Below, one piece after another: positions 11,512-31,720 of a stretch of DNA of 32,000 bases. Origin of the DNA: Marinicrinis sediminis (GTDB taxonomy: Bacteria > Bacillota > Bacilli > Paenibacillales > KCTC-33676); the NCBI RefSeq assembly GCF_042685085.1, contig NZ_JBHUMM010000023.1, positions 33,157 to 65,156 of the forward strand, read 5' to 3'. The position numbers and the translations under genes are program-made. The notes under the pieces are model-generated. The model saw nothing but the letters and a program-made list of their open reading frames with translations. It had not been told where the DNA came from and did not search any database. The first letter of the stretch is position 1. The number at the start of each line of letters is the position of its first letter.

Positions 11512-11548
11512 GAAAAATAAACATCCTACACATCATGTGTAGGATGTT
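11512..11548 (-). terminator. rho-independent terminator of secA-prfB
   Basis: A 13-bp perfect stem AACATCCTACACA / TGTGTAGGATGTT with a 3-nt loop is followed on the minus strand by TATTTTTC. It lies 17 nt after the prfB stop. Confidence 0.65.
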
Positions 11549-11564
11549 CTGCTCCGGAAGCAAT

Positions 11565-12675
11565 CTATTCACGGATGATCATTTTTCGCAAATAGGCATC
11601 AATAAACGTGTCCAGATCGCCATCCATTACGGCATCCACATTGCCCGTCTCTACCTGGGTACGATGATCCTTGACCATGCTGTATGGATGGAAGACGTAG
11701 GATCGAATCTGACTGCCCCAAGCGATATCCGATTGCTCTCCCCGAATGGCTGCCAGTTCTTGCTTTTGTTCCTCGATCTTTCTTTCATACAGTTTGGAAC
11801 GCAGCATTTTCATCGCGCGTTCACGATTTTGTATCTGTGAGCGTTCAGACTGGCAAGTTACGACGACATTGGTCGGCAGATGGGTAATCCGCACAGCCGA
11901 ATCGGTCGTATTGATATGCTGGCCGCCTGCTCCACTCGCCCGGTAGGTATCGATTTTCAAATCTTCGGTTCGAATCTCGATATCCCCGATTTCATCATCA
12001 ATTTCCGGCACCACATCGCACGAAACGAAGGAGGTATGCCTTCTGCCAGAGGAGTCGAACGGGGAGATGCGTACCAAGCGATGCACGCCTTTCTCTGCTT
12101 TCAGATAGCCATAAGCATTGTAGCCCTTAATCAGCAGCGTTACACTCTTCACACCCGCTTCATCACCAGGCAAATAGTTGAGGACTTCTACTTTGAACTG
12201 CTTGTCTTCGGCCCAGCGGCGGTACATCCGCAGCAGCATTTCTGCCCAATCCTGAGATTCCGTCCCCCCCGCACCCGGATGCAGCTCCAAGATGGCATTG
12301 GTTTTATCATAAGGTTCACTGAGCAGCAACTGAAGCTCATACTTCTCCAGTCGTTCGGTCAGTGCCGGCACGCCATCTATCACTTCTTGGGCGGCGTCTG
12401 TATCCTGTTCTTCCTGTGCCAGTTCCATCATCATCTGCAAGTCTTCATAGCTGTCAAACAGCTGCTGAAACTGTTGGACCACTTCTTTGACGGCATTTGC
12501 TTCCGAGATGACTTTTTGCGCTGACTCGTTGTCATTCCAGAAATCCGGATCACTCATCTTGATTTCGAAGTTCTCGATTTGCTCAAGCTTGAGATCTAAG
12601 TCAAAGAGACCCCCTAAGCTGCTCTAATCGATCCCCAAGCTCACGCATTTCCTGCTTCACTTCTGCTTCAAACAT
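11565..12675 (-). CDS. prfB: peptide chain release factor 2, requiring a programmed +1 frameshift (join 12675..12604 and 12602..11565)
   Basis: The track shows only the downstream frame (from MSDPDFWND), with SPF (RISPFDS) and GGQ ([11 protein letters not shown]) motifs. Upstream, the ATG at 12675 opens [24 protein letters not shown] and stops at the TGA at 12603-12601. Shifting +1 at CTT-TGA-C continues as [21 protein letters not shown]. Confidence 0.95.
12600..12615 (-). other. RF2 autoregulatory +1 frameshift site: internal SD AGGGGG, 3-nt spacer, CTT TGA C
   Basis: The minus strand reads AGGGGG TCT CTT TGA C. This is the same architecture as the textbook prfB recoding site (SD-like element, slippery CUU, UGA followed by C). 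Confidence 0.85.
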
Positions 12676-15386: not shown

Positions 15387-15956
15387 TTATTTAGCAGGTT
15401 CGATAACCCCGTACTTTCCATCGTTACGTTTATAAACGACGTTCACTTCACTCGTATCCATGTTGGAGAATACGAAAAAGTTATGTCCAATCATGTTCAT
15501 CTGCAGAATCGCTTCTTCTATGTCCATCGGTTTCAAGTCGAAGCGTTTGGTTCGAACGAGTTCGAAATCTTCTTCTGCGTCCGGCTCATGAGGGGCAACA
15601 GCCGTATTGCCGATCTGCTCATAATTTTCCTTGAACAGGCTCTTCATTCCGCCTTGCTGACGAACTTTGCGATTCACTTTCGTTTTATGTTTGCGAATTT
15701 GTCTTTCCAGTTTGTCGACCACCAGATCGATGGAAGCATACATATCTTGACCTTTTTCCTCTGCACGAAGCAGTACACCTGTAAGCGGAATGGTCACTTC
15801 AACAATTTGTACATCTTTGATCACGCTTAAGGTGACATGTACATCGGAAGTAGGGGGAGCATCGAAATATCTTTCGAGTTTGCTCAGCTTTTTCTCTACA
15901 TATTCTTTCAAAGCTGCTGTTACTTCAATCTGATTACCGCGAATATGAAATCTCAT
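15387..15956 (-). CDS. hpf: ribosome hibernation-promoting factor, long form (YvyD/HPF)
   Basis: The ORF begins MRFHIRGNQIEVTAALKEYVEKKLSKLERYF (sigma-54-modulation/RaiA fold). It has the C-terminal dimerisation domain IVRTKRFDLKPMDIEEAILQMNMIGHNFFVFSN. The ATG at 15956 lies 8 nt after AAAGGAGG. Confidence 0.93.
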   Translation of the reverse strand: MRFHIRGNQIEVTAALKEYVEKKLSKLERYFDAPPTSDVHVTLSVIKDVQIVEVTIPLTGVLLRAEEKGQDMYASIDLVVDKLERQIRKHKTKVNRKVRQQGGMKSLFKENYEQIGNTAVAPHEPDAEEDFELVRTKRFDLKPMDIEEAILQMNMIGHNFFVFSNMDTSEVNVVYKRNDGKYGVIEPAK

Positions 15957-16012: not shown

Positions 16013-16261
16013 AAAATCTTTACGATTTTTTTGAGGTTTCTGTCCCTTTTCGTCCATTGTGTTACACTGCTCCCAACTGTGAATAAAATCATAGCTTGCA
16101 GCCTGGGACGTCTACCTCGATTCGTTTACTCTATTCATTTATATGAGAGACATATAGAGCCTCTATCCTCATACACAGGTTGGATGGGTTTGAATCTGCG
16201 CTTCCGAACTTTCCCTCATCTATATGGCACTCAATTATATAGCATTCAATCTGACTCATTT

Positions 16262-16298: not shown

Positions 16299-17726
16299 TT
16301 ATACAAATGTATACTCATTGATTTCAAAAAACATCATTTTGTCAAAAATAATATAGTCTGTTCTACTTATAAAGGGACCGATATTGCTGGTTTTTTGAAT
16401 TTTGTAATAAGGTAATCCAATACCTGCATCCCGATTGCTATACCAGTCAAGGAACTGATTCACTTCAGTCATGGAAAGATCATATTCCTTTTCTAGACCA
16501 TTTTGCATTGTAATGACCAATATTGCCCGATTGTCATAATTAGGCGTAGCTGAGACTTCATTTGAATAGGTGCTCTCTACTTGATCAATGGCTGTAACGA
16601 CATAATAATACGTTGTGCCATTGGTGAGATTTGCATCTGTATACGTGGTGCCAGCTAATGAGGTAGCAACGGTTGTGTATGGTCCTCCGGATGTCGTGCT
16701 TCGTTTTACATTGTAACCTATCGCATCTGTTACCGCTTCCCAATTCAACACTACCTGCTGATTGCCGGCATTTGCTGTCAGATTAAGAGGAGCGTCCGGT
16801 TGAGCTACATAAGCATCCACCCGATCCAAAACATCTGCCCCATAACCACCGAATGTAATAATCTCATTATTCATTACAGCGGTTCCAAAACCTCTTTTTG
16901 CAATCGGCAAGTTTCCAAAGTTGGTCCAACTGTTGCTAGCGGGATTATAGCTTTCAATGGAAGTTAGATTACTGCCATTGTAACCACCGAGCACCAGAAT
17001 TTGTTGATTATAAATGACTGCACTCATATTGCTTCGACTTGTAGATAAGCTTGATTTGGTTGTCCAAGTATTTGTGGCAGGATCATACATCTCCATGGTA
17101 TTTACATAAGAACTTAAAGCCTTCCCACCCATTACATATATTTTTCCTGATAACACAACCGAATCCATATTTTCTCTAGGTGTTAGCATATTGCTCGCTG
17201 TGCTCCATGTGTCATTCTGAGGATCATAGATTTCAACAACATCTTGATATGTTTGCCCGTTTCCACCACCGATCACATATATTTTATTATTCAGCATAAC
17301 TGCACTAGCTAAATATCTAGCTACTGTCATAGGAGTTAAAGTTGTCCATGTATTTGTGACCGGGTTATATTTTTCAACGGTGTTTAGGGGGACTTGAGGG
17401 GATACATTCGATGTTCCTCCAAAAACATAAATCTCTCCATTATAAACTGCAGTGTCTGCTTGCCACCTGGAAGTAGGCGCATCTGCTTTTTGTGTCCAAG
17501 TTTTCAAATTCACATCAAATTCATACACACTATTCAAAACATTTGTGCCATCATATCCCCCAATCACATAAACTTTATCACCGACACTGGCATAAGCGAA
17601 GTTTGTCGTCTTTTTCGGTAATTCTGTGAATGTAGTCCAAACATTACTTCCCGATGCTGAAGATATAAGACTGAATAATAACAGCAAGCTAAACAAAAAT
17701 GGAATGATCACTTTTCTTTTTTTCAT
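16299..17726 (-). CDS. secreted Kelch-repeat beta-propeller protein with fibronectin type III domain and an unassigned ~85-aa C-terminal domain
   Basis: The signal peptide is MKKRKVIIPFLFSLLLLFSLISSASG. Six Kelch blades follow (KVYVIGGYDG, EIYVFGGTSN, KIYVIGGGNG, KIYVMGGKAL, QILVLGGYNG, EIITFGGYGA, each followed by a W). The Fn3 domain reads PLNLTANAGNQQVVLNWEAVTDAIGYNVKRS...YYYVVTAID. The ATG at 17726 lies 9 nt after GGAG. Confidence 0.8.
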   Translation of the reverse strand: MKKRKVIIPFLFSLLLLFSLISSASGSNVWTTFTELPKKTTNFAYASVGDKVYVIGGYDGTNVLNSVYEFDVNLKTWTQKADAPTSRWQADTAVYNGEIYVFGGTSNVSPQVPLNTVEKYNPVTNTWTTLTPMTVARYLASAVMLNNKIYVIGGGNGQTYQDVVEIYDPQNDTWSTASNMLTPRENMDSVVLSGKIYVMGGKALSSYVNTMEMYDPATNTWTTKSSLSTSRSNMSAVIYNQQILVLGGYNGSNLTSIESYNPASNSWTNFGNLPIAKRGFGTAVMNNEIITFGGYGADVLDRVDAYVAQPDAPLNLTANAGNQQVVLNWEAVTDAIGYNVKRSTTSGGPYTTVATSLAGTTYTDANLTNGTTYYYVVTAIDQVESTYSNEVSATPNYDNRAILVITMQNGLEKEYDLSMTEVNQFLDWYSNRDAGIGLPYYKIQKTSNIGPFISRTDYIIFDKMMFFEINEYTFV

Positions 17727-17910
17727 GTATACATCTCCTGTCAAATTTTAATCGAGTACTGGAATGAATGAGGCCGAAACTATCACTTCTTTCGGTAGTG
17801 AAAAAACCGTCGAGCATGTTTTTCATGAAGATTATGTATTTCCTTATGAACGAGTTCATTCCACCTCCTATTTCAGTATTGTGAACATAAATGTAGGGGA
17901 CAACGTCTAA

Positions 17911-17966: not shown

Positions 17967-18017
17967 AAATAAAATAAGGCTTCCCTCCTTGTCATAGCAA
18001 TGACAAGAAAGGAAGCC
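17967..18017 (-). terminator. rho-independent terminator of the cold-shock gene
   Basis: An 18-bp stem GGCTTCCTTTCTTGTCAT / ATGACAAGGAGGGAAGCC (two G-U pairs, 4-nt loop) is followed by TTATTTTATTT on the minus strand. Confidence 0.65.
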
Positions 18018-18080
18018 TGTTGGGCTAATCGTTCAAAATGAAACCATCTATATCGGTACCTCTCATTTAGAGGATGATGA

Positions 18081-18278
18081 TTACAATTTTATTACGTTAG
18101 CAGCTTGAGGTCCGCGAGCGCCTTCAACGATGTCGAATTCGACTTCTTGACCTTCTTCTAATGTTTTGAAACCTTCAGATTGGATTGCGGAAAAATGAAC
18201 AAAAACGTCTCCGCCTTCTTCTGTTTCGATGAAACCGTAACCTTTTTCTGCGTTAAACCATTTCACTTTACCTTGCAT
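18081..18278 (-). CDS. cold-shock protein (CspA/CspB/CspD family, 65 aa)
   Basis: The sequence is [65 protein letters not shown]. It has the RNP1 (KGYGFI) and RNP2 (VFVHF) motifs. The track start at 18326 is over-extended. Confidence 0.95.
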
Positions 18279-18332: not shown

Positions 18333-18361
18333 AATATATCATTGGTCCTGTTTGATGTCAA
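18333..18361 (-). promoter_or_regulatory. sigma-A promoter of the csp gene (consensus -35 TTGACA, 17 nt, extended -10 TGaTATATT)
   Basis: The minus strand reads TTGACA-TCAAACAGGACCAATGA-TATATT, leaving a 5' UTR of about 50 nt. Confidence 0.55.
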
Positions 18362-18449
18362 TGTCCTTTCCACGCCGATCAAGCCCAAAATTATCTGAAA
18401 ATTCGACTATTTACATCTTCTTCTCAAAATGAAAGCTTGTTTTCATTGG

Positions 18450-18546
18450 TTATGCACAGATTTATCCACATTATCCACAGGTAGTTGCATCGGATTTGCA
18501 CACAATGCGGGGGTCAGTTGTCCACATCAGGTTAACTTTATCCACA
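18450..18546 (+). promoter_or_regulatory. cluster of five co-oriented DnaA boxes
   Basis: The boxes are TTATGCACA (18450-18458), TTATCCACA (18462-18470), TTATCCACA (18471-18479, directly abutting), TTGTCCACA (18518-18526) and TTATCCACA (18538-18546). Four fit TTATNCACA exactly and one has a single mismatch. Confidence 0.7.
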
Positions 18547-18576
18547 AAAAAAGACCCCTCTGTAGATAAAGGGGTC
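18546..18576 (-). terminator. rho-independent terminator ending the glycan operon
   Basis: The stem GACCCCT / AGGGGTC with a 10-nt loop is followed by TTTTTTT on the minus strand. It lies 4 nt after the aminotransferase stop. Confidence 0.7.
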
Positions 18577-18580
18577 ATGT

Positions 18581-19777
18581 CTACTTGTGATACACGAACG
18601 CTACTTTTTTAACGGCTTCAATGACATCATTTACATCCTCAGCTGTCATACCCGGGAAGATTGGAAGGGTCAGAGCGTGCTGATACCACTCTTCCGCTAC
18701 TGGACACAGTCCCCTTGCATAACCGAGTTGCTCGTAATAAGGATGCCAATACACTGGAATATAATGGACATGTACACCGATATTTTCTGCTCGCAACGCC
18801 TCGAAAAATTCTCTCCTGGAAGCTCGGAATGCCTCCGGATTCAATTGCAATGAATACAAGTGCCATGCCGATTCTGTTTCCGTCAACTGCTTGGGCACAA
18901 TGAGTCCGTCTATCTGTTCAAATGCAGTCGTATAAGCCTCGGCGATAGCTCTGCGTTGCTGAGTGAAACTGAACAGCTTTCTGAGCTGCGAGCGGCCGAG
19001 AGAAGCTTGGATATCGGTCATCCGATAATTGTAGCCCAGTTCCTGCATTTCATAGTACCAGGCACCTTCCCGGTCTATCACAGTTGCATCGCGAACGATA
19101 CCGTGAGAGCGAAAGCTTCTCAGCTGTGAAGCCACGCTTTCATCGTGAGTCGTAATCACACCGCCCTCTCCAGCGGTCACTGGCTTGACAGGATGGAAGC
19201 TGAACATCGCCATGTTGGAAGATGACCCAATTGGTTGCCCCTGATGAGACGCTCCCAAAGCATGTGCAGCATCCTCAATCAACTGCAATCCATATCTGTT
19301 TGTCAGAGCACGCAAGGCTGTGAGGTCACAGGGCTGCCCCGTAAAGTGTACCGCCATAATCGCTTTTGTGCGAGATGTAATAGCCTGCTCAACGCTAGAC
19401 GGGTCCAGATTATAGGTTTGTGGATCAATATCTGCGAATACCGGTCGGCCTCCACAATAAAGGACACAATTCGAACTGGCTGCAAAGGTAATGGGACTCG
19501 TAATGACTTCATCACCCTCTGTGATCCCCGCAACATGGCATGCGGCATGCAGCGCAGCCGTGCCGTTCGCAAAAGCGATGGCATCGCCAGCTCCCACTTC
19601 CTCGGCGACTGCTTGTTCAAATGCTTCAATTGCAGGTCCTTGTGTGAGATAGGGACTGCGCAATGTATCTACCACATGTGCGATGTCCTCCTCATCCAGC
19701 CATTGGCGTCCATATGGAAGCATGGTGCTTCGTATCGGGACACCGCCATGAATCGCCAGCGTGTTCAGATTTGTCAT
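18581..19777 (-). CDS. pseC: DegT/DnrJ/EryC1/StrS-family PLP aminotransferase, PseC-like (UDP-4-keto-6-deoxy-HexNAc 4-aminotransferase)
   Basis: The ORF has LPYGRQWLDEEDIAHVVDTLRSPYLTQGPAIEAFEQAV, FANGTAALHAA and FSFHPVKPVTAGEGG (PLP lysine). The ATG at 19777 (MTNLNTL) lies 9 nt after AGAGGA. The GTG at 19822 and the internal MLPYGRQ are alternative starts. Confidence 0.8.
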   Translation of the reverse strand: MTNLNTLAIHGGVPIRSTMLPYGRQWLDEEDIAHVVDTLRSPYLTQGPAIEAFEQAVAEEVGAGDAIAFANGTAALHAACHVAGITEGDEVITSPITFAASSNCVLYCGGRPVFADIDPQTYNLDPSSVEQAITSRTKAIMAVHFTGQPCDLTALRALTNRYGLQLIEDAAHALGASHQGQPIGSSSNMAMFSFHPVKPVTAGEGGVITTHDESVASQLRSFRSHGIVRDATVIDREGAWYYEMQELGYNYRMTDIQASLGRSQLRKLFSFTQQRRAIAEAYTTAFEQIDGLIVPKQLTETESAWHLYSLQLNPEAFRASRREFFEALRAENIGVHVHYIPVYWHPYYEQLGYARGLCPVAEEWYQHALTLPIFPGMTAEDVNDVIEAVKKVAFVYHK

Positions 19778-19814
19778 GACCAGACATCCTCTCTGTGATC
19801 CGTTCATTCCTGTT

Positions 19815-20762
19815 TCACGCACGGGTGAAACGTCTGATCCATTCTTCGGTTCTGCGAATCCCTTCGGTTAGAGGGGTTGTCGCTTCCCACCCCAGCAATT
19901 GCTTCGCTTTCTCCGGATTACAGAGCAGCTTCTGGATCTCGCTCTGTGGATGAATATGAGGAACATGCTTAATCTCGGAATGATCCTGTGCGATCAGTTG
20001 AGCGAGTTCGTTAATGGCTATGTCCTGTCCCGTTCCTGCATGTACGACCTGCCCATTTACGCGATCCGAGTATCCCGCTGAGACAACAAAGTCGGCGCAA
20101 TCTTCGACATAGAGCAGATCACGGGTCTGAGTGCCATCTCCATATATTTGTATGTCTGCACCTAACAGCTTCTGATGAACGAAAATAGAGACTACGCCAC
20201 CCTCACCGCTTGTCTTCTGATAAGGTCCATACGTATTAAAAGGTCTTACGACGACTGCAGGTAGGCCGTACGCATGAAAATAGGACAAAGTCATGCTTTC
20301 AGCGGCAATCTTGGCACCTGCGTATGGCGAAGCAGGCTTTACCGGATGTGCTTCTGTAAGGCCAGAAGCCTCGGTACAACGTTCATATACCATACAGGTA
20401 CTCATTAGAACCATTTTGGTATGATGCTTTCTACAGGCTTCCAGCACGCAGAACGTTCCGACTGTATCATTCTGAAACGTGGTCTTTGGGTCATCAATCG
20501 AATCCTGTACGTTAATCGAAGCACCTAAATGGTAGCAAATTTCAAATGAATGTTTCGCAAACAGCTCATCAATCAAAGCCTGATTTTTGATATCCCCGAT
20601 TACAACAGATTGAAGGAACGGATCTGAGCGGAATTCCTCCAAGTTTTTTTCACTGCCATTCGATAAATCATCGATGACAGATACTGCATGTCCGTCTTCC
20701 AGGAGTTTCTTCACGACCCATCTGCCGATAAAACCGGCTCCACCTGTCACTAATACACGCAT
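19815..20762 (-). CDS. NAD-dependent epimerase/dehydratase (extended SDR, GalE/RmlB-like)
   Basis: The ORF has MRVLVTGGAGFIGRWVVKKLL (GxxGxxG), a YAGAK catalytic YxxxK and YGDGTQTRDLLYVEDCA. The ATG at 20762 lies 6 nt after GGAAAGGGGA. Confidence 0.85.
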   Translation of the reverse strand: MRVLVTGGAGFIGRWVVKKLLEDGHAVSVIDDLSNGSEKNLEEFRSDPFLQSVVIGDIKNQALIDELFAKHSFEICYHLGASINVQDSIDDPKTTFQNDTVGTFCVLEACRKHHTKMVLMSTCMVYERCTEASGLTEAHPVKPASPYAGAKIAAESMTLSYFHAYGLPAVVVRPFNTYGPYQKTSGEGGVVSIFVHQKLLGADIQIYGDGTQTRDLLYVEDCADFVVSAGYSDRVNGQVVHAGTGQDIAINELAQLIAQDHSEIKHVPHIHPQSEIQKLLCNPEKAKQLLGWEATTPLTEGIRRTEEWIRRFTRA

Positions 20763-25965: not shown

Positions 25966-27237
25966 TCACCCTTTCTCCACTGTGATCCAGCGAACAAATC
26001 GGTCCAGTACCAGCATGCCATCCCATGGCAATTGATAATGATGGGCTTTGCCGACGGGTACGATCCGACTCACTCCTTGAAAACGGACACTGTCCAGCAA
26101 TCGCAGCATATCCTCTTCCTCCAGTTTGTGAGAAATTGTCTGTATGGAAGGAGGCAGAACGTGTCCAATTTCACTCATGTCCTTACTGGGATATACATGT
26201 AAAATATGCAAGCCCTCACCTGTTAGCGGCTCTAACCGGTCGTGGAAATGCAACGTCCATTCCGCTCCTTCGGAGACAAGCAACCGCTCCCCCTTCAGCC
26301 ATGCTCGCGTCCGATAATGAACCACCTTCATCGTTTCCCCGGCATCGAAAGGCTGGGACACATGGCTGCGTAACGGTTTCTGTAAGGCTTCAGCCAGTCG
26401 CCCCCCAGCATCCAGAGAAACTTGTTTGTCTCCTTTTACAATCAAGGCATGCGGAGACGAGCACGCCAACTGATTAAATAACAGCATATCTTGAGCAATC
26501 CTAGTCCAGTCTGCTGTATCCATTTGTGCAGGATCGATTACCGCACAGCTGTATTTGGGTCCGAATATCAATGTTTCACTCTCTGGCTTTCCCGGCAGAG
26601 AGGATACAGCATGCACAGCTTCCCTGCCTCCCCAAGCTACACGCACGTCGCATTGAGCGGCTACCTGTTGATTCCATATCGTATCCTTTCCAGGATAGGA
26701 GACGACCATAACAGACTCTGACATGACTTGTCCGGCTTGTCCGCACTTCGAAAGCTCAGCAAGAAAAGGGCTGATATAATCGATTTGTCTGCTGCTTAAT
26801 TTCACAATCGAGTGATTTTTCGTGAGTATTGCCTGGATAACAGAGATAAGACTTAACAGAGGGACATTTCCAGCCATCCAGTGACCGATCATGCCTCTGG
26901 GAACGGCGGTAACGCTCATCCCCGTCAAGTCCACCACCTGATCAAGCACCTGCTCGTGACGCAGACCTCGTTTCAAGAAACTTCGCAAAGAATCCGGGTG
27001 GATAAAGGTTAATAAATAGGCCAGGCCCACATGGCGAAGTTGACGATGGACGGGATGTTTGGGAGATGCCAAGCGCTGATAAAGCGTGTAGAAAGCTTCG
27101 ACCATGTCGTTGAACTTCAGGTGCCGCACTTGACGCGGTTGCTGTCCAAAATGCTGAAGCCGCTGCTTGAATTCCTCATCGGACAGGGGTTGTTCCTGCT
27201 GCGTTCGCCCCTCTATAAAATGAATGGCATTTACCAT
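25966..27237 (-). CDS. LuxC-family acyl-CoA/acyl-protein reductase (aldehyde-forming)
   Basis: The 423-aa ORF has GHWMAGNVPLLSLISVIQAILTKN and FNQLACSSPHALIV (the position of the acylated Cys in LuxC). It overlaps the upstream gene at ATGGTAA. Confidence 0.78.
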   Translation of the reverse strand: MVNAIHFIEGRTQQEQPLSDEEFKQRLQHFGQQPRQVRHLKFNDMVEAFYTLYQRLASPKHPVHRQLRHVGLAYLLTFIHPDSLRSFLKRGLRHEQVLDQVVDLTGMSVTAVPRGMIGHWMAGNVPLLSLISVIQAILTKNHSIVKLSSRQIDYISPFLAELSKCGQAGQVMSESVMVVSYPGKDTIWNQQVAAQCDVRVAWGGREAVHAVSSLPGKPESETLIFGPKYSCAVIDPAQMDTADWTRIAQDMLLFNQLACSSPHALIVKGDKQVSLDAGGRLAEALQKPLRSHVSQPFDAGETMKVVHYRTRAWLKGERLLVSEGAEWTLHFHDRLEPLTGEGLHILHVYPSKDMSEIGHVLPPSIQTISHKLEEEDMLRLLDSVRFQGVSRIVPVGKAHHYQLPWDGMLVLDRFVRWITVEKG

Positions 27238-28046
27238 CCCAGCGTCACCCCTTCCACGGTTTCAAACGGCCATACAGGTGGAGGTTCCCATGCTTCAGCC
27301 TGTTTGGACAGCGGCTTATACAAGGGAGTCCACATCTCGGTTTGTGCCGGATTCTTTTCTGTCATTTTTCCACTGATTCCCTCACGGGTTCTGGCCATAT
27401 AATGAAAGGTCTTCTCATTGAGCTGCACTGCTTCTGCCATGAAATCTTCAACGGGAGAAAGCAGCCATTGACTCTCTGTGAACCAATAGTGCCTTTCCTG
27501 GCCTTTCATATAATGATATCTTCTTGGAGAAGCGAGGAACCGCCAAGCTTCATAAATAGAAGGATAGTCTGAGTTTGAACAGGAGGTTTGCTGGTCCGCC
27601 AGGCTTGGAGATAGGCTTAGCCTCTCCTCTCCTCTGGCATTTCCGTTCGTTTGTGCCGCCTGATAAGTTCCGAAAGGCTGCCATCCCAGTAATCGCTTCA
27701 CTGGTCCCATTTTGTTATTTGCAAACGCCATTACGGCATCCAGTTTGGCTTCATCTCGTGCCCAATGCAAAGCGTGCTCCAACATGTCAGCTATAAATGG
27801 AAGGGTCGTCCTTTCCGGATGAAAGATCCCGTCCACAGCGAAGGCTACCCTTGCTTTCGGCTTGAAAGGCATTTCAATCATGGCATAGTGAGCATAGAGG
27901 ACCCCTTCTTCTTCGGCCACCCAGCTCATTTGGACCGGCGCCTGTTTCTTCCATTGAAACAAGGATGGATCAAACTGAAGTCCCCGTGCCTCATATAAGG
28001 TCCGAACTCCCTCTATATCATTTGGCATGTAGCTTCGTATCTGCAC
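27231..28046 (-). CDS. hypothetical protein, N-terminal half GNAT-like acyltransferase fold
   Basis: The 271-aa ORF has a GTG start 7 nt after GGAGGAG, located inside the 3' end of the LuxE-like gene (29-nt overlap). Residues 1-130 (IRSYMPNDIEGVRTLY...WVAEEEGVLYAHYAMIEMPF...FAVDGIFHPE...AFANNKMGPVKRLLGW) show GNAT-like beta/alpha spacing, but I see no clean Q/RxxGxG/A motif. I cannot assign the C-terminal half. Confidence 0.5.
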   Translation of the reverse strand: MQIRSYMPNDIEGVRTLYEARGLQFDPSLFQWKKQAPVQMSWVAEEEGVLYAHYAMIEMPFKPKARVAFAVDGIFHPERTTLPFIADMLEHALHWARDEAKLDAVMAFANNKMGPVKRLLGWQPFGTYQAAQTNGNARGEERLSLSPSLADQQTSCSNSDYPSIYEAWRFLASPRRYHYMKGQERHYWFTESQWLLSPVEDFMAEAVQLNEKTFHYMARTREGISGKMTEKNPAQTEMWTPLYKPLSKQAEAWEPPPVWPFETVEGVTLGW

Positions 28047-29154
28047 CCATTATCTCCTCCGCATACACATCCCCGCATCCGCGTGCCTCAGCCTTTGGCG
28101 CCCGGCCTTTAAATCGGAATGCTTTTCCCTTCCTTCCACATGGGCACTCATCGGTCCCCACCCATTCCCCGAGATCATCGGTCAGTACCGAAAAGTTAGG
28201 GGAAGAAAGCGGCAGCAACGAAATGAGCTGAATGAGTCCCGTTTCCCCGACTGGCAATGGTTTCAATGTGTGAGGGGCCCTGATGATGACATCAGCAAAG
28301 TAAGGAACATGTTTATTTCCTGCTGAACAATCCGGATACACGACGCCCGTTTGTTCTACTAATCCATAGAAATCAATGACCTGAGAAGGTTCAATGCCCC
28401 AAAACTGAGAGATTTGCTGGTTAAATGTTTCTTTGTGCACACGCATATGCTCCAGGCGTTTCCAGCCTCCGCTATGAATCAGAAACGTTTGGGAATCAAA
28501 GCCCTTCTGCGCCTCATACAATGTCATCAACTGCTCATGGGCCTGATGAAGCAGATAGGTAAATCCATAGGCGATGAATTGTCCCGCTTCTCTGGCTGCT
28601 TGCAGAGCCTGCTCGAATCGCTCTGGATTGAGTCTCAGCTCACCGTGTATGTCATCCATAACAAAATGAAATTCCGATGCATAACCCATTAAGGACATGA
28701 TCGCAGCTCCTCGAGCGGACATTACCTGCTTGCCACGTGCAGTTTGCATGGTATCAAAGATAATATAAGGTCTGCGTTCCACGCCTATATGATCATTCCA
28801 AATGGCCTGCAACGATTGACGTTGTCTGGCAGAGGTTCTCTCATCGATGAAAACCTGTGAGGGAACACCTGAGGAAGTGCTGCTGGACTGTACCGTCTTC
28901 ATTTTCACATCTTTATTCGCAGCGGTTTTTAATTCAAATTCCTTAAAGATGGATGTCGGCAGAAAAGGAAGGTCCGTCAATGCTGCATATTGTCCGTCTC
29001 GGGCCTGAGCCTCTACCAAATGACGGTACGGTTTGCAATGCTGGACATGCCACTGAAGCAAATGCCGAAATTCCTTCAACAGATAGGTTTCTTTCTCGGC
29101 CTGTTCCATTTCGTAAGGCCTGACTTGTTCCATCAAGCAATCATGTATAGACAT
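28018..29154 (-). CDS. LuxE-family acyl-protein synthetase (adenylate-forming)
   Basis: The ORF is collinear with Photorhabdus/Vibrio LuxE as I recall it. Shared stretches are LLKEFRHLLQWHVQHCKPYRHL, LPFLPTSIFKEF, SSSTSSGVPSQV, LIHSGGWKRL, HVPYFADVIIRAPHTLKPLPVGETGLIQLISL and SVLTDDLG. TAAATG junction to the upstream Fe-ADH-like gene. Confidence 0.85.
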   Translation of the reverse strand: MSIHDCLMEQVRPYEMEQAEKETYLLKEFRHLLQWHVQHCKPYRHLVEAQARDGQYAALTDLPFLPTSIFKEFELKTAANKDVKMKTVQSSSTSSGVPSQVFIDERTSARQRQSLQAIWNDHIGVERRPYIIFDTMQTARGKQVMSARGAAIMSLMGYASEFHFVMDDIHGELRLNPERFEQALQAAREAGQFIAYGFTYLLHQAHEQLMTLYEAQKGFDSQTFLIHSGGWKRLEHMRVHKETFNQQISQFWGIEPSQVIDFYGLVEQTGVVYPDCSAGNKHVPYFADVIIRAPHTLKPLPVGETGLIQLISLLPLSSPNFSVLTDDLGEWVGTDECPCGRKGKAFRFKGRAPKAEARGCGDVYAEEIMGADTKLHAK

Positions 29155-30255
29155 TTATATCTGATCCTCTCCGGTAAACCACCATGTCTGCAGCCATGTG
29201 TCTAGCTCTTGTCTGGATATGTACGCAGCATTTGTACGGAAGCATGGGTCCAATTGAATACGCTTGAGCATCTCCTCGCGATTCATTTGCATCTGATCAA
29301 CAGGCCGAAAGGTTCCGACTGTCTGCTTGGTTTTTTCCTCCAGCCAGGCTATCCCCTCTATGGCATCCTCAAATCCACACGCCTGCCAAATGGAATGAAA
29401 TTTCTCCTCCGCCTTCGTCATATGAAAGCGTGTCACGCTTGCGATGATTCGACCACATGCTTCTCCATGCCATTGCTTTCGATGTTCAACCTGATGCGCA
29501 AGGGCATGAATCAATCCCGCAGAAGCCACACTTTGCGCCTTTCCAGCCAGCACACTATTCCACTGTAAGTCCGAACTTGCCGATTGCTTACTTTCCGGAG
29601 CAGGTTCCAATCTTGTGCTGGTCAGTTTATCCACGTGTTCTTTGCAATTTCTGATAGCATCCAGTGACAATCGCTTGCTGGCCGGCGTAGCCAGAGGAGA
29701 CACATAGGACTCCAGTGCATGGGTGAATACATCCCATATCCCGTTCCACAATACCCGATCAGGAGCAGTTGCCACGATCTGCTCATCGAGCAGCACTTCA
29801 TTTGGCAGTAAAGAAGCATGATGCAGCGGAACTTTTTGACCATCAATGGTCAGTACAGCCGTCTCACTGACTTCGCTGCCGCTTCCTGCCGTACTTGGAA
29901 TGGCGGTTAACCGATACGGATGACTTTCATTATATGTGATCCATTTTCGCTTCCTTAACTGCGCCTTGCCCGCTTCATCCAAACGACCCAGTCTAACGGC
30001 CAGCTTGGCTAAATCAAGCACCTTGCCGCCGCCAAATGCTATGATCCATTTGCTTCGATTCTGGTACACCCATTCCTGAAGGGCTACCAAGGTGTCCCAA
30101 TCTGCAGAATCAACAAGAAAACAGGATCGTTTAGCTAATACTGGATATTGATGCTGTAAGGAAGGCGAGGTAATCCATATCGCTTCTTCTACTCTCATCA
30201 TTTCCACCACGACGTCTTTCACCTGGCGGATACGAGGCCATTGAATCATCGACAT
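29155..30255 (-). CDS. iron-containing (group III) alcohol dehydrogenase / DHQS-like oxidoreductase
   Basis: The ORF has WIIAFGGGKVLDLAKLAV (GGGSxxDxAK-type NAD site), PSTAGSGSEVS, DVFTHALESY and LIHALAHQVEH...HGEA (metal His cluster). The ATG at 30255 lies 9 nt after GGAGAGGAG and 4 nt after the ligase stop. The track start at 30369 is over-extended. Confidence 0.75.
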   Translation of the reverse strand: MSMIQWPRIRQVKDVVVEMMRVEEAIWITSPSLQHQYPVLAKRSCFLVDSADWDTLVALQEWVYQNRSKWIIAFGGGKVLDLAKLAVRLGRLDEAGKAQLRKRKWITYNESHPYRLTAIPSTAGSGSEVSETAVLTIDGQKVPLHHASLLPNEVLLDEQIVATAPDRVLWNGIWDVFTHALESYVSPLATPASKRLSLDAIRNCKEHVDKLTSTRLEPAPESKQSASSDLQWNSVLAGKAQSVASAGLIHALAHQVEHRKQWHGEACGRIIASVTRFHMTKAEEKFHSIWQACGFEDAIEGIAWLEEKTKQTVGTFRPVDQMQMNREEMLKRIQLDPCFRTNAAYISRQELDTWLQTWWFTGEDQI

Positions 30256-30259
30256 TTCT

Positions 30260-31720
30260 TTATTCTCCTCTCCATCGACTTCGAGCTTCGAGGCGTTTCG
30301 GTTTACCGCTGTCGGTAAGGGGGATGGCATCCCATGCTTGTATGGTTTTCGGAATTTTATATATTTCAAGCTGCTGTTTACAGTGTTTTTTCATTTCTAC
30401 TTCCAGCTTTGCTGTCCAGATTACGCCCTCTTTTAGGACAACTGCGGATACGACTTTCTCGTGTGTCATGTTGTCCGGGACAGCAAATACAATGCACGCC
30501 TGAATAAGAGGATGCATAAGCAGGACTTTCTCTACTTCCGCGGGTGCCACTTTTAAGCCATCTACGTTTATTTGCTCTTTCAATCTGCCGCTCACGTACA
30601 AGAAACCGTCTTCATCCATCCATCCAATATCCCCTGTCGCAAACCAACCATCTGAGAGAAAGCTGTCTGCATGATTCAGGTAGCCCATCATGAGATTGCG
30701 TCCGTTCACCTGTATTTCAGAGGTTGTCGCATCCAGTCGAACGGCAACTCCCTCGGGTGCCTGGCCTGCGCTCGACAGCTTGTCAGGAAAATCCCTGTAG
30801 GAGATATAGGTGGTTCGGCTCGCCTCTGTCAGACCGTAGTACATATAGATCCGGGTATGAGGCAATACCTCCAACAGCTCCTGTACAACTTCTTCCTCGA
30901 TCGGCGCGGTATTAATGATGATGTAGGACAAATGACGGCAGGTTTCTATAAATTCCTGTTTATACATAGACAGCAGCACTTTAATCAAGGCTGGTGTTGC
31001 AGGCATACCTGTGGCCCGCATGTTTTTAATCCGTTGAAGCATATGCGAGATATGTTGGGCAGATTCGTGGAGTATGATCTGCGCACCGAGCAACACATAG
31101 CTGTGAATGTGACCTAATCCAAACGAATGGGTCAGCCTTAACACGGTCAATTCCCGATCATCTCTGTTCATGCCAGACCACTCAATGATTCTCTCAGCTG
31201 TGAACAGGATGGAAGAATGGGAAAGCATCACCCCTTTAGGAGCTCCGGTTGTGCCACTGGTATACATAATTAGAGCGGGGTGATTCTGGTTGTCTCCCTC
31301 CTGAGTTGATGCATCTTCATCCCATGAAATATCCCTGTATACTTTATTGGAAGGAAAAACAGCTGTGGAGACTGCTGAATCTTCAACAAGTTGCTTTCTT
31401 GCGCTGTGCAAAATCAATTTGGGCTGCGCATCTGCCACGATTTGCACCAAAACGCGTGGTCGGCAATCGAGATCTACTGGAATCACGGTAAGACCTAAAC
31501 ACCAGCTTGCAAAATACGCAAGGAGATACTCCAACTCATTTCCAAAACATAACACTACCCTGTCTCCGCGTGACAAGCTAAATGTCTGTTTCAGATAGGT
31601 CGCTGCACGCCGCACTTCATCGCTGAACTGCCCATAGCTGATGTCTTCTCCCTCAAGCGCAATGAAAGGGGCATCCGGCTGATTCTGTGCCTGTTCCACC
31701 AGCTTGTGCCAAATGGTCAT
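30260..31720 (-). CDS. ANL-superfamily adenylate-forming ligase (acyl/aminoacyl-carrier-protein ligase type)
   Basis: The 486-aa ORF has IMYTSGTTGAPKGVMLSH (A3), YYGLTE (A5), WFATGDIG (A7), GRLKEQINVDGLKVAPAEVE (A8) and PLTDSGKPKR (A10 Lys). Its start overlaps the ACP stop (TAATG). Confidence 0.9.
   Translation of the reverse strand: MTIWHKLVEQAQNQPDAPFIALEGEDISYGQFSDEVRRAATYLKQTFSLSRGDRVVLCFGNELEYLLAYFASWCLGLTVIPVDLDCRPRVLVQIVADAQPKLILHSARKQLVEDSAVSTAVFPSNKVYRDISWDEDASTQEGDNQNHPALIMYTSGTTGAPKGVMLSHSSILFTAERIIEWSGMNRDDRELTVLRLTHSFGLGHIHSYVLLGAQIILHESAQHISHMLQRIKNMRATGMPATPALIKVLLSMYKQEFIETCRHLSYIIINTAPIEEEVVQELLEVLPHTRIYMYYGLTEASRTTYISYRDFPDKLSSAGQAPEGVAVRLDATTSEIQVNGRNLMMGYLNHADSFLSDGWFATGDIGWMDEDGFLYVSGRLKEQINVDGLKVAPAEVEKVLLMHPLIQACIVFAVPDNMTHEKVVSAVVLKEGVIWTAKLEVEMKKHCKQQLEIYKIPKTIQAWDAIPLTDSGKPKRLEARSRWRGE

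Follow-up and report, generated by a model that had tools for sequence, protein, structure and literature searches.

Between the end of a glycan operon and a cold-shock protein gene (csp), the DNA of Marinicrinis sediminis considered here, a stretch of 32,000 nucleotides referred to as the window, carries a dense array of DnaA boxes, raising the question of whether DnaA assembles at a site outside the replication origin and, if it does, whether it restrains initiation there, regulates the neighbouring genes, or both. Extra-origin DnaA-box clusters (DBCs) are among the few known brakes on initiation in bacteria without SeqA and Hda and the means through which DnaA exerts its role as a transcription factor; experimental maps of them come almost exclusively from B. 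subtilis. A preliminary description of the window had listed five same-strand boxes between positions 18450 and 18546, three of them perfect copies of TTATCCACA and two of these directly abutting, and both the sequence and a pattern search show this to be exact (Table 1), the abutting pair being boxes 2 and 3. While the five plus-strand boxes were listed correctly, a sixth, one-mismatch box on the minus strand was omitted; it is probably incidental. Boxes 1 to 3 form a triplet arranged head-to-tail, with starts 9 and 12 bp apart and the outer boxes separated by 21 bp, or two helical turns, and the distal boxes 4 and 5 share the orientation of the triplet.

Table 1. Features of the csp control region and the flanking genes, in window coordinates.
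Feature	Position	Strand	Remarks
DegT aminotransferase gene	18581-19822	-	last gene of the glycan operon before the boxes
Intrinsic terminator of the DegT / nonulosonic-acid glycan operon	18553-18576	-	9-bp stem, T-run
Sixth, weak box TTATCTACA	18561-18569	-	1 mismatch; in loop and stem of the upstream terminator
DnaA box 5 TTATCCACA	18538-18546	+	perfect; lineage-specific; abuts T-tract of the upstream terminator
DnaA box 4 TTGTCCACA	18518-18526	+	1 mismatch; lineage-specific
DnaA box 3 TTATCCACA	18471-18479	+	perfect; abuts box 2; distal end of the conserved triplet
DnaA box 2 TTATCCACA	18462-18470	+	perfect; middle of the conserved triplet; pattern search and alignment
DnaA box 1 TTATGCACA	18450-18458	+	promoter-proximal end of the conserved triplet; 3 bp to box 2; pattern search
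Palindrome AATGAAAGCTTGTTTTCATT	18428-18447	.	2 bp from box 1; conserved in one subclade
CodY-like box AATTATCTGAAAATT	18389-18403	.	1 mismatch to AATTTTCWGAAAATT; csp -35 lies 27 nt downstream
csp promoter	18333-18361	-	-35 TTGACA 18356-18361; 17-bp spacer; TG-extended -10 TATATT 18333-18338
csp, cold-shock protein gene	18081-18278	-	65 aa, CSD domain
csp terminator	17977-18018	-	19-bp stem
hpf, long ribosome hibernation promoting factor gene	15387-15956	-	2.5 kb from the cluster

The order on the minus strand is glycan operon, terminator, boxes, SigA-type promoter, csp, terminator, a Kelch/fn3 gene and hpf, followed past hpf by secA, prfB, a yitT-family gene and the arg operon. The upstream operon is of the nonulosonic-acid or flagellin-glycan type and encodes NeuB, a cytidylyltransferase, LuxC/LuxE, a DUF4910 protein, a formyltransferase, an epimerase and the DegT aminotransferase. 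Genes for a LuxC-type acyl-CoA reductase, a LuxE-type acyl-protein synthetase, an Fe-ADH-like protein and an AMP-binding ligase (25966-31720, minus strand) look like an unusual fatty-acyl module within this NeuB/cytidylyltransferase operon, an apparent flagellin-glycosylation island. Upstream, the csp regulatory region ends at the terminator of the glycan operon; the csp promoter, kept in all aligned relatives, is the only promoter-like site across the 300-bp intergenic region; the opposite strand has no gene there. The cluster had been placed between this terminator and the csp promoter with the -35 about 90 bp away, which agrees with the 88 bp measured from the -35 to the nearest box. An Rfam search of the whole window recovered no family, including the raiA RNA and any csp leader. 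A 46-aa open reading frame spanning the boxes (18429-18569, plus strand) was dismissed, the sequence 5' of the triplet not being conserved. The Kelch-repeat/fn3 gene between csp and hpf (16299-17744, minus strand) has 37-40% GC in a region of ~50% GC and looks horizontally acquired. In most relatives csp is located a few hundred bp from hpf; in the window hpf is further from the cluster because csp and the low-GC Kelch gene are interposed. An isolated one-mismatch box, TTATTCACA (16078-16086, minus strand), occurs ~116 bp upstream of the hpf start.

The score A of Ishikawa 2007, in which the summed affinities of four successive boxes are divided by their mean spacing, selects at A>0.3 exactly the eight regions that are stably bound by DnaA in vivo in B. 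subtilis, where the clusters score between 0.36 and 1.64 (PMC2533591). The two best quartets in the window reach 0.75 (18462-18546) and 0.72 (18450-18526), with a maximum of 0.03 in the rest of the window, on a threshold that was calibrated in B. subtilis alone. Across ~1 Mb of related Paenibacillaceae loci, A>0.3 is almost confined to this position and one other recurrent position, and the score is therefore specific in the Paenibacillaceae too. Fifteen boxes with at most one mismatch are found in the window, against 8.0 ± 2.7 in shuffled sequences, and its three perfect boxes all fall inside the cluster, within 85 bp. When the window was simulated 500 times with a first-order Markov model, perfect boxes averaged 0.3 per window against the three observed, and the maximum was two boxes per 100 bp against the observed five. 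The reading of the cluster as a chance or compositional artefact, which could appeal to the commonness of one-mismatch boxes (eight expected per window), retains virtually no probability and is already refuted, in line with the preliminary description, as none of the 500 simulations reaches even three boxes per 100 bp, no other site in the window comes closer than a 25th of the A value, and conservation singles out the box positions.

Nor is the cluster a replication origin. It had been described as distinct from the canonical origin, with no dnaA, dnaN or rpmH nearby, and the absence of these genes extends to the full 32 kb, where Pfam annotation of all large open reading frames revealed none of these genes and no rep gene. 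GC skew is negative in 30 of the 32 1-kb bins, the cumulative skew drops almost monotonically, and the assigned genes flanking the cluster, over 15 kb in each direction, are all encoded on the minus strand; with no change in skew or gene orientation around the site, there is therefore no origin-type switch in the window. DnaA-trios do not form a run of four or more on either strand next to the boxes, an AT-rich unwinding element is absent (A+T does not exceed 73% in any 30 bp), and a search of the window for parS found no site. A cryptic, secondary or relic origin, for example an ancestral oriC half or an integrated replicon, has one point in its favour, the density of consensus DnaA boxes in a single orientation, against which stand all of these absences and the conserved chromosomal intergenic position of the cluster in many species, and this reading is extremely improbable. 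Two complete cluster-bearing Paenibacillus records place the start of the locus 102 kb into 7.96 Mb and 128 kb into 8.10 Mb, and hpf is found at ~190 kb in the 2.75 Mb of C. tetani and at ~170 kb in the 1.98 Mb of T. celere, all in record coordinates, which need not begin at dnaA; the positions in two further complete Paenibacillus records do not fit a record start at dnaA.

Conservation was assessed in 80 loci, almost all from Paenibacillaceae, collected by an hpf search with one genome per species, among which the best species representative has an hpf only 75% identical to that of the window, so that the relatives compared are no closer. The triplet is located at the matching place upstream of csp or hpf in 24 of the 80 species, and its core, read on the csp-sense strand and corresponding to boxes 3, 2 and 1 of the window, is always TGTGGAyAA-TGTGsATAA-nnn-TGTKnATAA, with box 1 kept as TGTKNATAA in all 24 aligned loci. 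Identity between species is 89% over the 27 box columns, 30% over the 40 columns on the 5' side and 59% on the 3' side. The columns of the triplet that vary are the 3-bp spacer and two positions of the boxes, the fifth (the N of TTATNCACA) and the third (A/G). The alignable regulatory region starts exactly at the triplet, the alignment ending at box 3. Selection for DnaA binding would be expected to leave just such a signature. A check suggested earlier was whether the boxes, and not their flanks, are conserved, and it holds for the triplet (18450-18479; 89% vs 30%) and fails for boxes 4 and 5, which are not conserved among these relatives (hpf at most 75% identical) and are lineage-specific. 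By manual count, 12 of the 24 relatives have extra boxes of their own 5' of the triplet, in varied positions and orientations.

The cluster stays with csp despite a changing upstream neighbour, which is fliD-fliS-fliT in most species and flagellin, DegT, glycosyltransferase or KAS III genes in others. Chengkuizengella axinellae has no csp at the locus, and the triplet, palindrome and CodY-like box are located directly upstream of hpf. The hpf products of the cluster-positive species are 64-99% identical, and these species group together beside Bacillaceae outgroups in a neighbour-joining tree built from the single gene hpf; Cohnella and core Paenibacillus lack the cluster at this locus. The triplet and the -35 are 88 bp apart in the window and 116-119 bp apart in most relatives, with extremes of 59 and 187 bp. 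In several relatives (L039, at 11532-11580, and also L007, L013, L022 and L030) a second DnaA-box cluster, with A up to 2.4, closely follows the yitT-family gene at a distance of ~5.5 kb beyond hpf; it is absent from the window, where yitT (end 10588) abuts argC (start 10570).

DBCs are taken here as at least four closely packed boxes with no more than one mismatch to TTATNCACA and A>0.3. With A = 0.75, a location outside oriC without adjoining dnaA or unwinding machinery, and boxes conserved in the 24 Paenibacillaceae species, the array has the sequence properties of DBCs and lacks those of an origin, and is therefore assigned to the already known DBC class. The boxes are furthermore located inside the regulatory region of a single nearby promoter, as in DnaA-regulated promoters. 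The earlier assignment to the kind represented by B. subtilis DBCs and datA thus stands on every point that can be judged from sequence. The array is probably a genuine extra-origin DnaA-box cluster in the csp-hpf regulatory region and a high-affinity site of DnaA assembly, and its sequence points strongly to DnaA binding.

That the boxes are bound mainly by another factor, such as Spo0A or a regulator that also recognises the adjacent palindrome, appears very improbable. Such a reading could draw on the overlap of 0A boxes with DnaA boxes at the B. subtilis oriC, on a perfect TGTCGAA ~13 bp downstream of the triplet in one subclade and on the conserved palindrome 2 bp from box 1 in the subclade of the window. 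However, invariance in the triplet coincides exactly with the fixed positions of the DnaA box, whose degenerate fifth position is the one that varies, the neighbouring elements change between subclades while the boxes stay, and the window itself has no 0A box at the cluster. The palindrome is kept in relatives L001, L002, L028, L033, L036, L041 and L079, and its place is taken in other subclades by the Spo0A-box-like TGTCGAA motif and a CCGC...GCGG hairpin.

A CodY-like box accompanies the cluster, occurring in 22 of the 24 cluster-positive loci and in three of the 52 cluster-negative loci, and is located ~22 nt upstream of the -35 in the relatives and 27 nt upstream in the window. In S. aureus, hpf is transcribed from a CodY-activated SigA promoter with a CodY box upstream of the -35 (Basu 2018, PMC6256015), and a CodY box is stated to have been found upstream of yvyD in B. 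subtilis (PMC6256015).

The earlier description had linked the cluster to csp. While the cluster does adjoin the csp promoter in the window, the partner conserved across the Bacillota is hpf more than csp. Metagenome contigs were scanned for the triplet pattern, giving at least 120 contigs, a sample selected by the pattern itself. In 17 of the 120 contigs listed an hpf homologue starts 149-390 bp downstream of the triplet, and well under one such adjacency would be expected by chance because hpf is one gene among a few thousand. The products of these hpf genes are 44-54% identical to that of the window and represent at least nine lineages at 70% hpf identity, with a median pairwise identity of ~50% and contig GC contents of 32-59%. 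The contigs that could be assigned belong to Lachnospiraceae, Anaerotignum lactatifermentans and Acetivibrionales/Clostridiaceae, one of them falling in the Caloramator group, and all but one of the 17 have the module inverted with respect to hpf. A box-independent sample was formed by six named Clostridia-type species picked by hpf similarity alone. The cluster is present upstream of hpf in four of these, with a degenerate middle box in Thermobrachium celere, Caloramator quimbayensis and Clostridium cylindrosporum and one mismatch in each of the three boxes in Caloranaerobacter ferrireducens, and is absent at hpf in C. tetani and Clostridium sp. MSJ-4.

The raiA non-coding RNA (RF03072) is located between comFC and hpf in the Clostridiaceae (L130 4690-4891, L205 1809-2017, L207 789-990, L208 673-882, L201 2101-2309 and L203 2049-2258). 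The order in the cluster-bearing members is comFC, raiA RNA, DnaA boxes and hpf, and C. tetani and Clostridium sp. MSJ-4 carry the RNA without the cluster. Further positions of the triplet among the metagenome contigs listed are between NlpC/P60 and V-ATPase subunit D genes (~27 contigs, many from the human gut), beside DUF1294/PolC/GlyRS genes (10 low-GC contigs), beside a thioredoxin-reductase-like gene (seven), downstream of tsaD/gcp (six) and beside dnaA (one). The gcp cluster is a DBC position already known as conserved (PMC2533591), while the NlpC/P60-V-ATPase and DUF1294/PolC/GlyRS triplets (L082, L086, L107, L111 and ~20 further loci) are candidate lineage-specific DnaA clusters.

A literature search found no link of DnaA boxes to a hibernation factor, nor to Paenibacillus and csp; the titles and abstracts on yvyD and DnaA show no link, and a replication-arrest study that was checked mentions neither hpf nor csp. 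Of the 269 regions of B. subtilis bound by DnaA in vitro (tables of Smith & Grossman 2015), none is at yvyD, fliT or secA. The position of the cluster is new, together with an association with hpf, and with csp, across the Bacillota that is apparently ancient and, in the literature searched, undescribed.

With regard to function, DnaA-ATP would bind the perfect boxes and oligomerise cooperatively along the head-to-tail array, as at the B. subtilis DBCs. Because neither an unwinding element nor DnaA-trios are adjacent, no melting and no helicase loading would follow, and the bound complex would be non-productive for replication. The complex would lie 88 bp upstream of the -35 of a strong SigA-type promoter with a CodY-like box, the only promoter in the intergenic region, and could therefore alter the transcription of csp and, in the ancestral arrangement, of hpf; such modulation would follow the level or nucleotide state of DnaA, i.e. 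the replication status. A bound cluster would also withdraw DnaA from the pool available to oriC. Transcription control and titration may both apply, as in B. subtilis, where most DBCs regulate a neighbouring gene and DBCs also restrain initiation. The direct target in the window would be csp only, because a strong terminator and the inserted gene separate the cluster from hpf, and the link to hpf is here historical rather than direct.

For transcription control speak the persistent adjacency to one gene pair despite rearrangements, the co-occurrence with the CodY-like element and the precedent of the DBCs, while titration is favoured by the occurrence of the cluster in either orientation, its variable distance, the turnover of extra boxes and the several lineages without it. 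The absence of the cluster from C. tetani, Clostridium sp. MSJ-4, Cohnella and core Paenibacillus means that it is dispensable. A strict promoter architecture with fixed distance and helical face was set aside, given the 59-187 bp spread and the inverted module in the Clostridia. This inversion, seen in nearly all of the Clostridia, speaks against a classical, helical-face-dependent activator and agrees with a function indifferent to orientation, of which titration is an example.

A pure DnaA sink of the datA kind would buffer or inactivate DnaA, with the position at csp and hpf an inherited accident without transcriptional effect. Deletion of six DBCs in B. subtilis leads to early initiation, which is partly complemented by a single DBC moved to the terminus region (PMC3245932), and the free turnover of boxes around the core, the placement in either orientation relative to hpf and the widely varying promoter distance are what a mere DnaA-binding site would be expected to display. 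Any intergenic region would, however, serve a sink, yet the same gene pair is adjoined from Paenibacillaceae to Lachnospiraceae and Clostridiaceae, and this adjacency persists although the module has been inverted, csp inserted and the upstream neighbour exchanged. The near-perfect co-occurrence with the CodY-like element and the regulation of a neighbouring gene by most B. subtilis DBCs likewise stand against an exclusive sink, which appears unlikely. A genuine DnaA assembly site in the csp-hpf regulatory region remains the preferred reading, and beyond it the cluster may tentatively be considered the Paenibacillaceae form of an ancient Bacillota cis-element through which DnaA directly controls hpf and, here, csp, coupling readiness for initiation to ribosome shutdown and preservation, a possible though doubtful role. 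Were this the case, the link between DnaA and hpf would have been overlooked because the site is absent in B. subtilis, and the Clostridiaceae locus, with its boxes between the raiA RNA and hpf, would integrate DnaA, CodY and raiA-RNA inputs. If DnaA acts on csp or hpf, the capacity for translation and the preservation of ribosomes would respond directly to replication status, a link between the machineries of replication and translation.

Among known systems, the oriC of the Bacillota shares the box consensus and the tandem head-to-tail arrangement, but the cluster lacks the dnaA/dnaN genes, DnaA-trios, AT-rich unwinding element and skew switch. The E. coli loci DARS1 and DARS2 have a core of three DnaA boxes outside oriC, in which oppositely oriented boxes are needed to promote the release of ADP. 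A three-box core outside oriC is likewise found here, but with all three boxes in the same direction. E. coli datA acts through IHF-dependent stimulation of DnaA-ATP hydrolysis, and IHF is not known from the Bacillota. In contrast to datA, the cluster has no recognisable IHF site, and there is no sequence homology between the two; the likeness lies in the approximately five high-affinity DnaA boxes outside oriC, which at datA lower the initiation potential (PMC3245932). The hpf promoter of S. aureus resembles the csp promoter in its TTGACA-N17-TGNTATAAT-type sequence and in the CodY box shortly upstream of the -35, at 15 nt there and 27 nt here, but in the window csp is driven and hpf lies further downstream, and no DnaA boxes have been reported at the S. 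aureus promoter (PMC6256015).

The DnaA-regulated promoters of B. subtilis (dnaA, sda, ywlC, yydA, vpr and trmE) also have boxes clustered within or upstream of the promoter; those upstream of the sda promoter activate transcription, and the boxes of the sda, ywlC, yydA and gcp clusters are conserved in related species. The putative targets here, csp and ancestrally hpf, differ in that neither belongs to the known DnaA regulon. With the DBCs of B. subtilis the cluster shares an intergenic array of at least four packed boxes, several of them perfect TTATCCACA, an A value (0.75) that falls within their span of 0.36-1.64, a location beside a promoter and the lack of association with unwinding, and some metagenome contigs have a triplet of identical layout downstream of tsaD/gcp. 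It differs from them in position, since it follows fliT or the glycan operon and precedes csp-hpf, where B. subtilis has no DnaA site. The locus thus adds to the B. subtilis DBCs a cluster position missing from that species, with a core that appears to be under selection across much of the Paenibacillaceae and recurs beside the ribosome hibernation gene in distant Clostridia, and the stereotyped box-box-3 bp-box arrangement of this core is a pattern that can be used in practice to search uncultured Bacillota for DnaA clusters.
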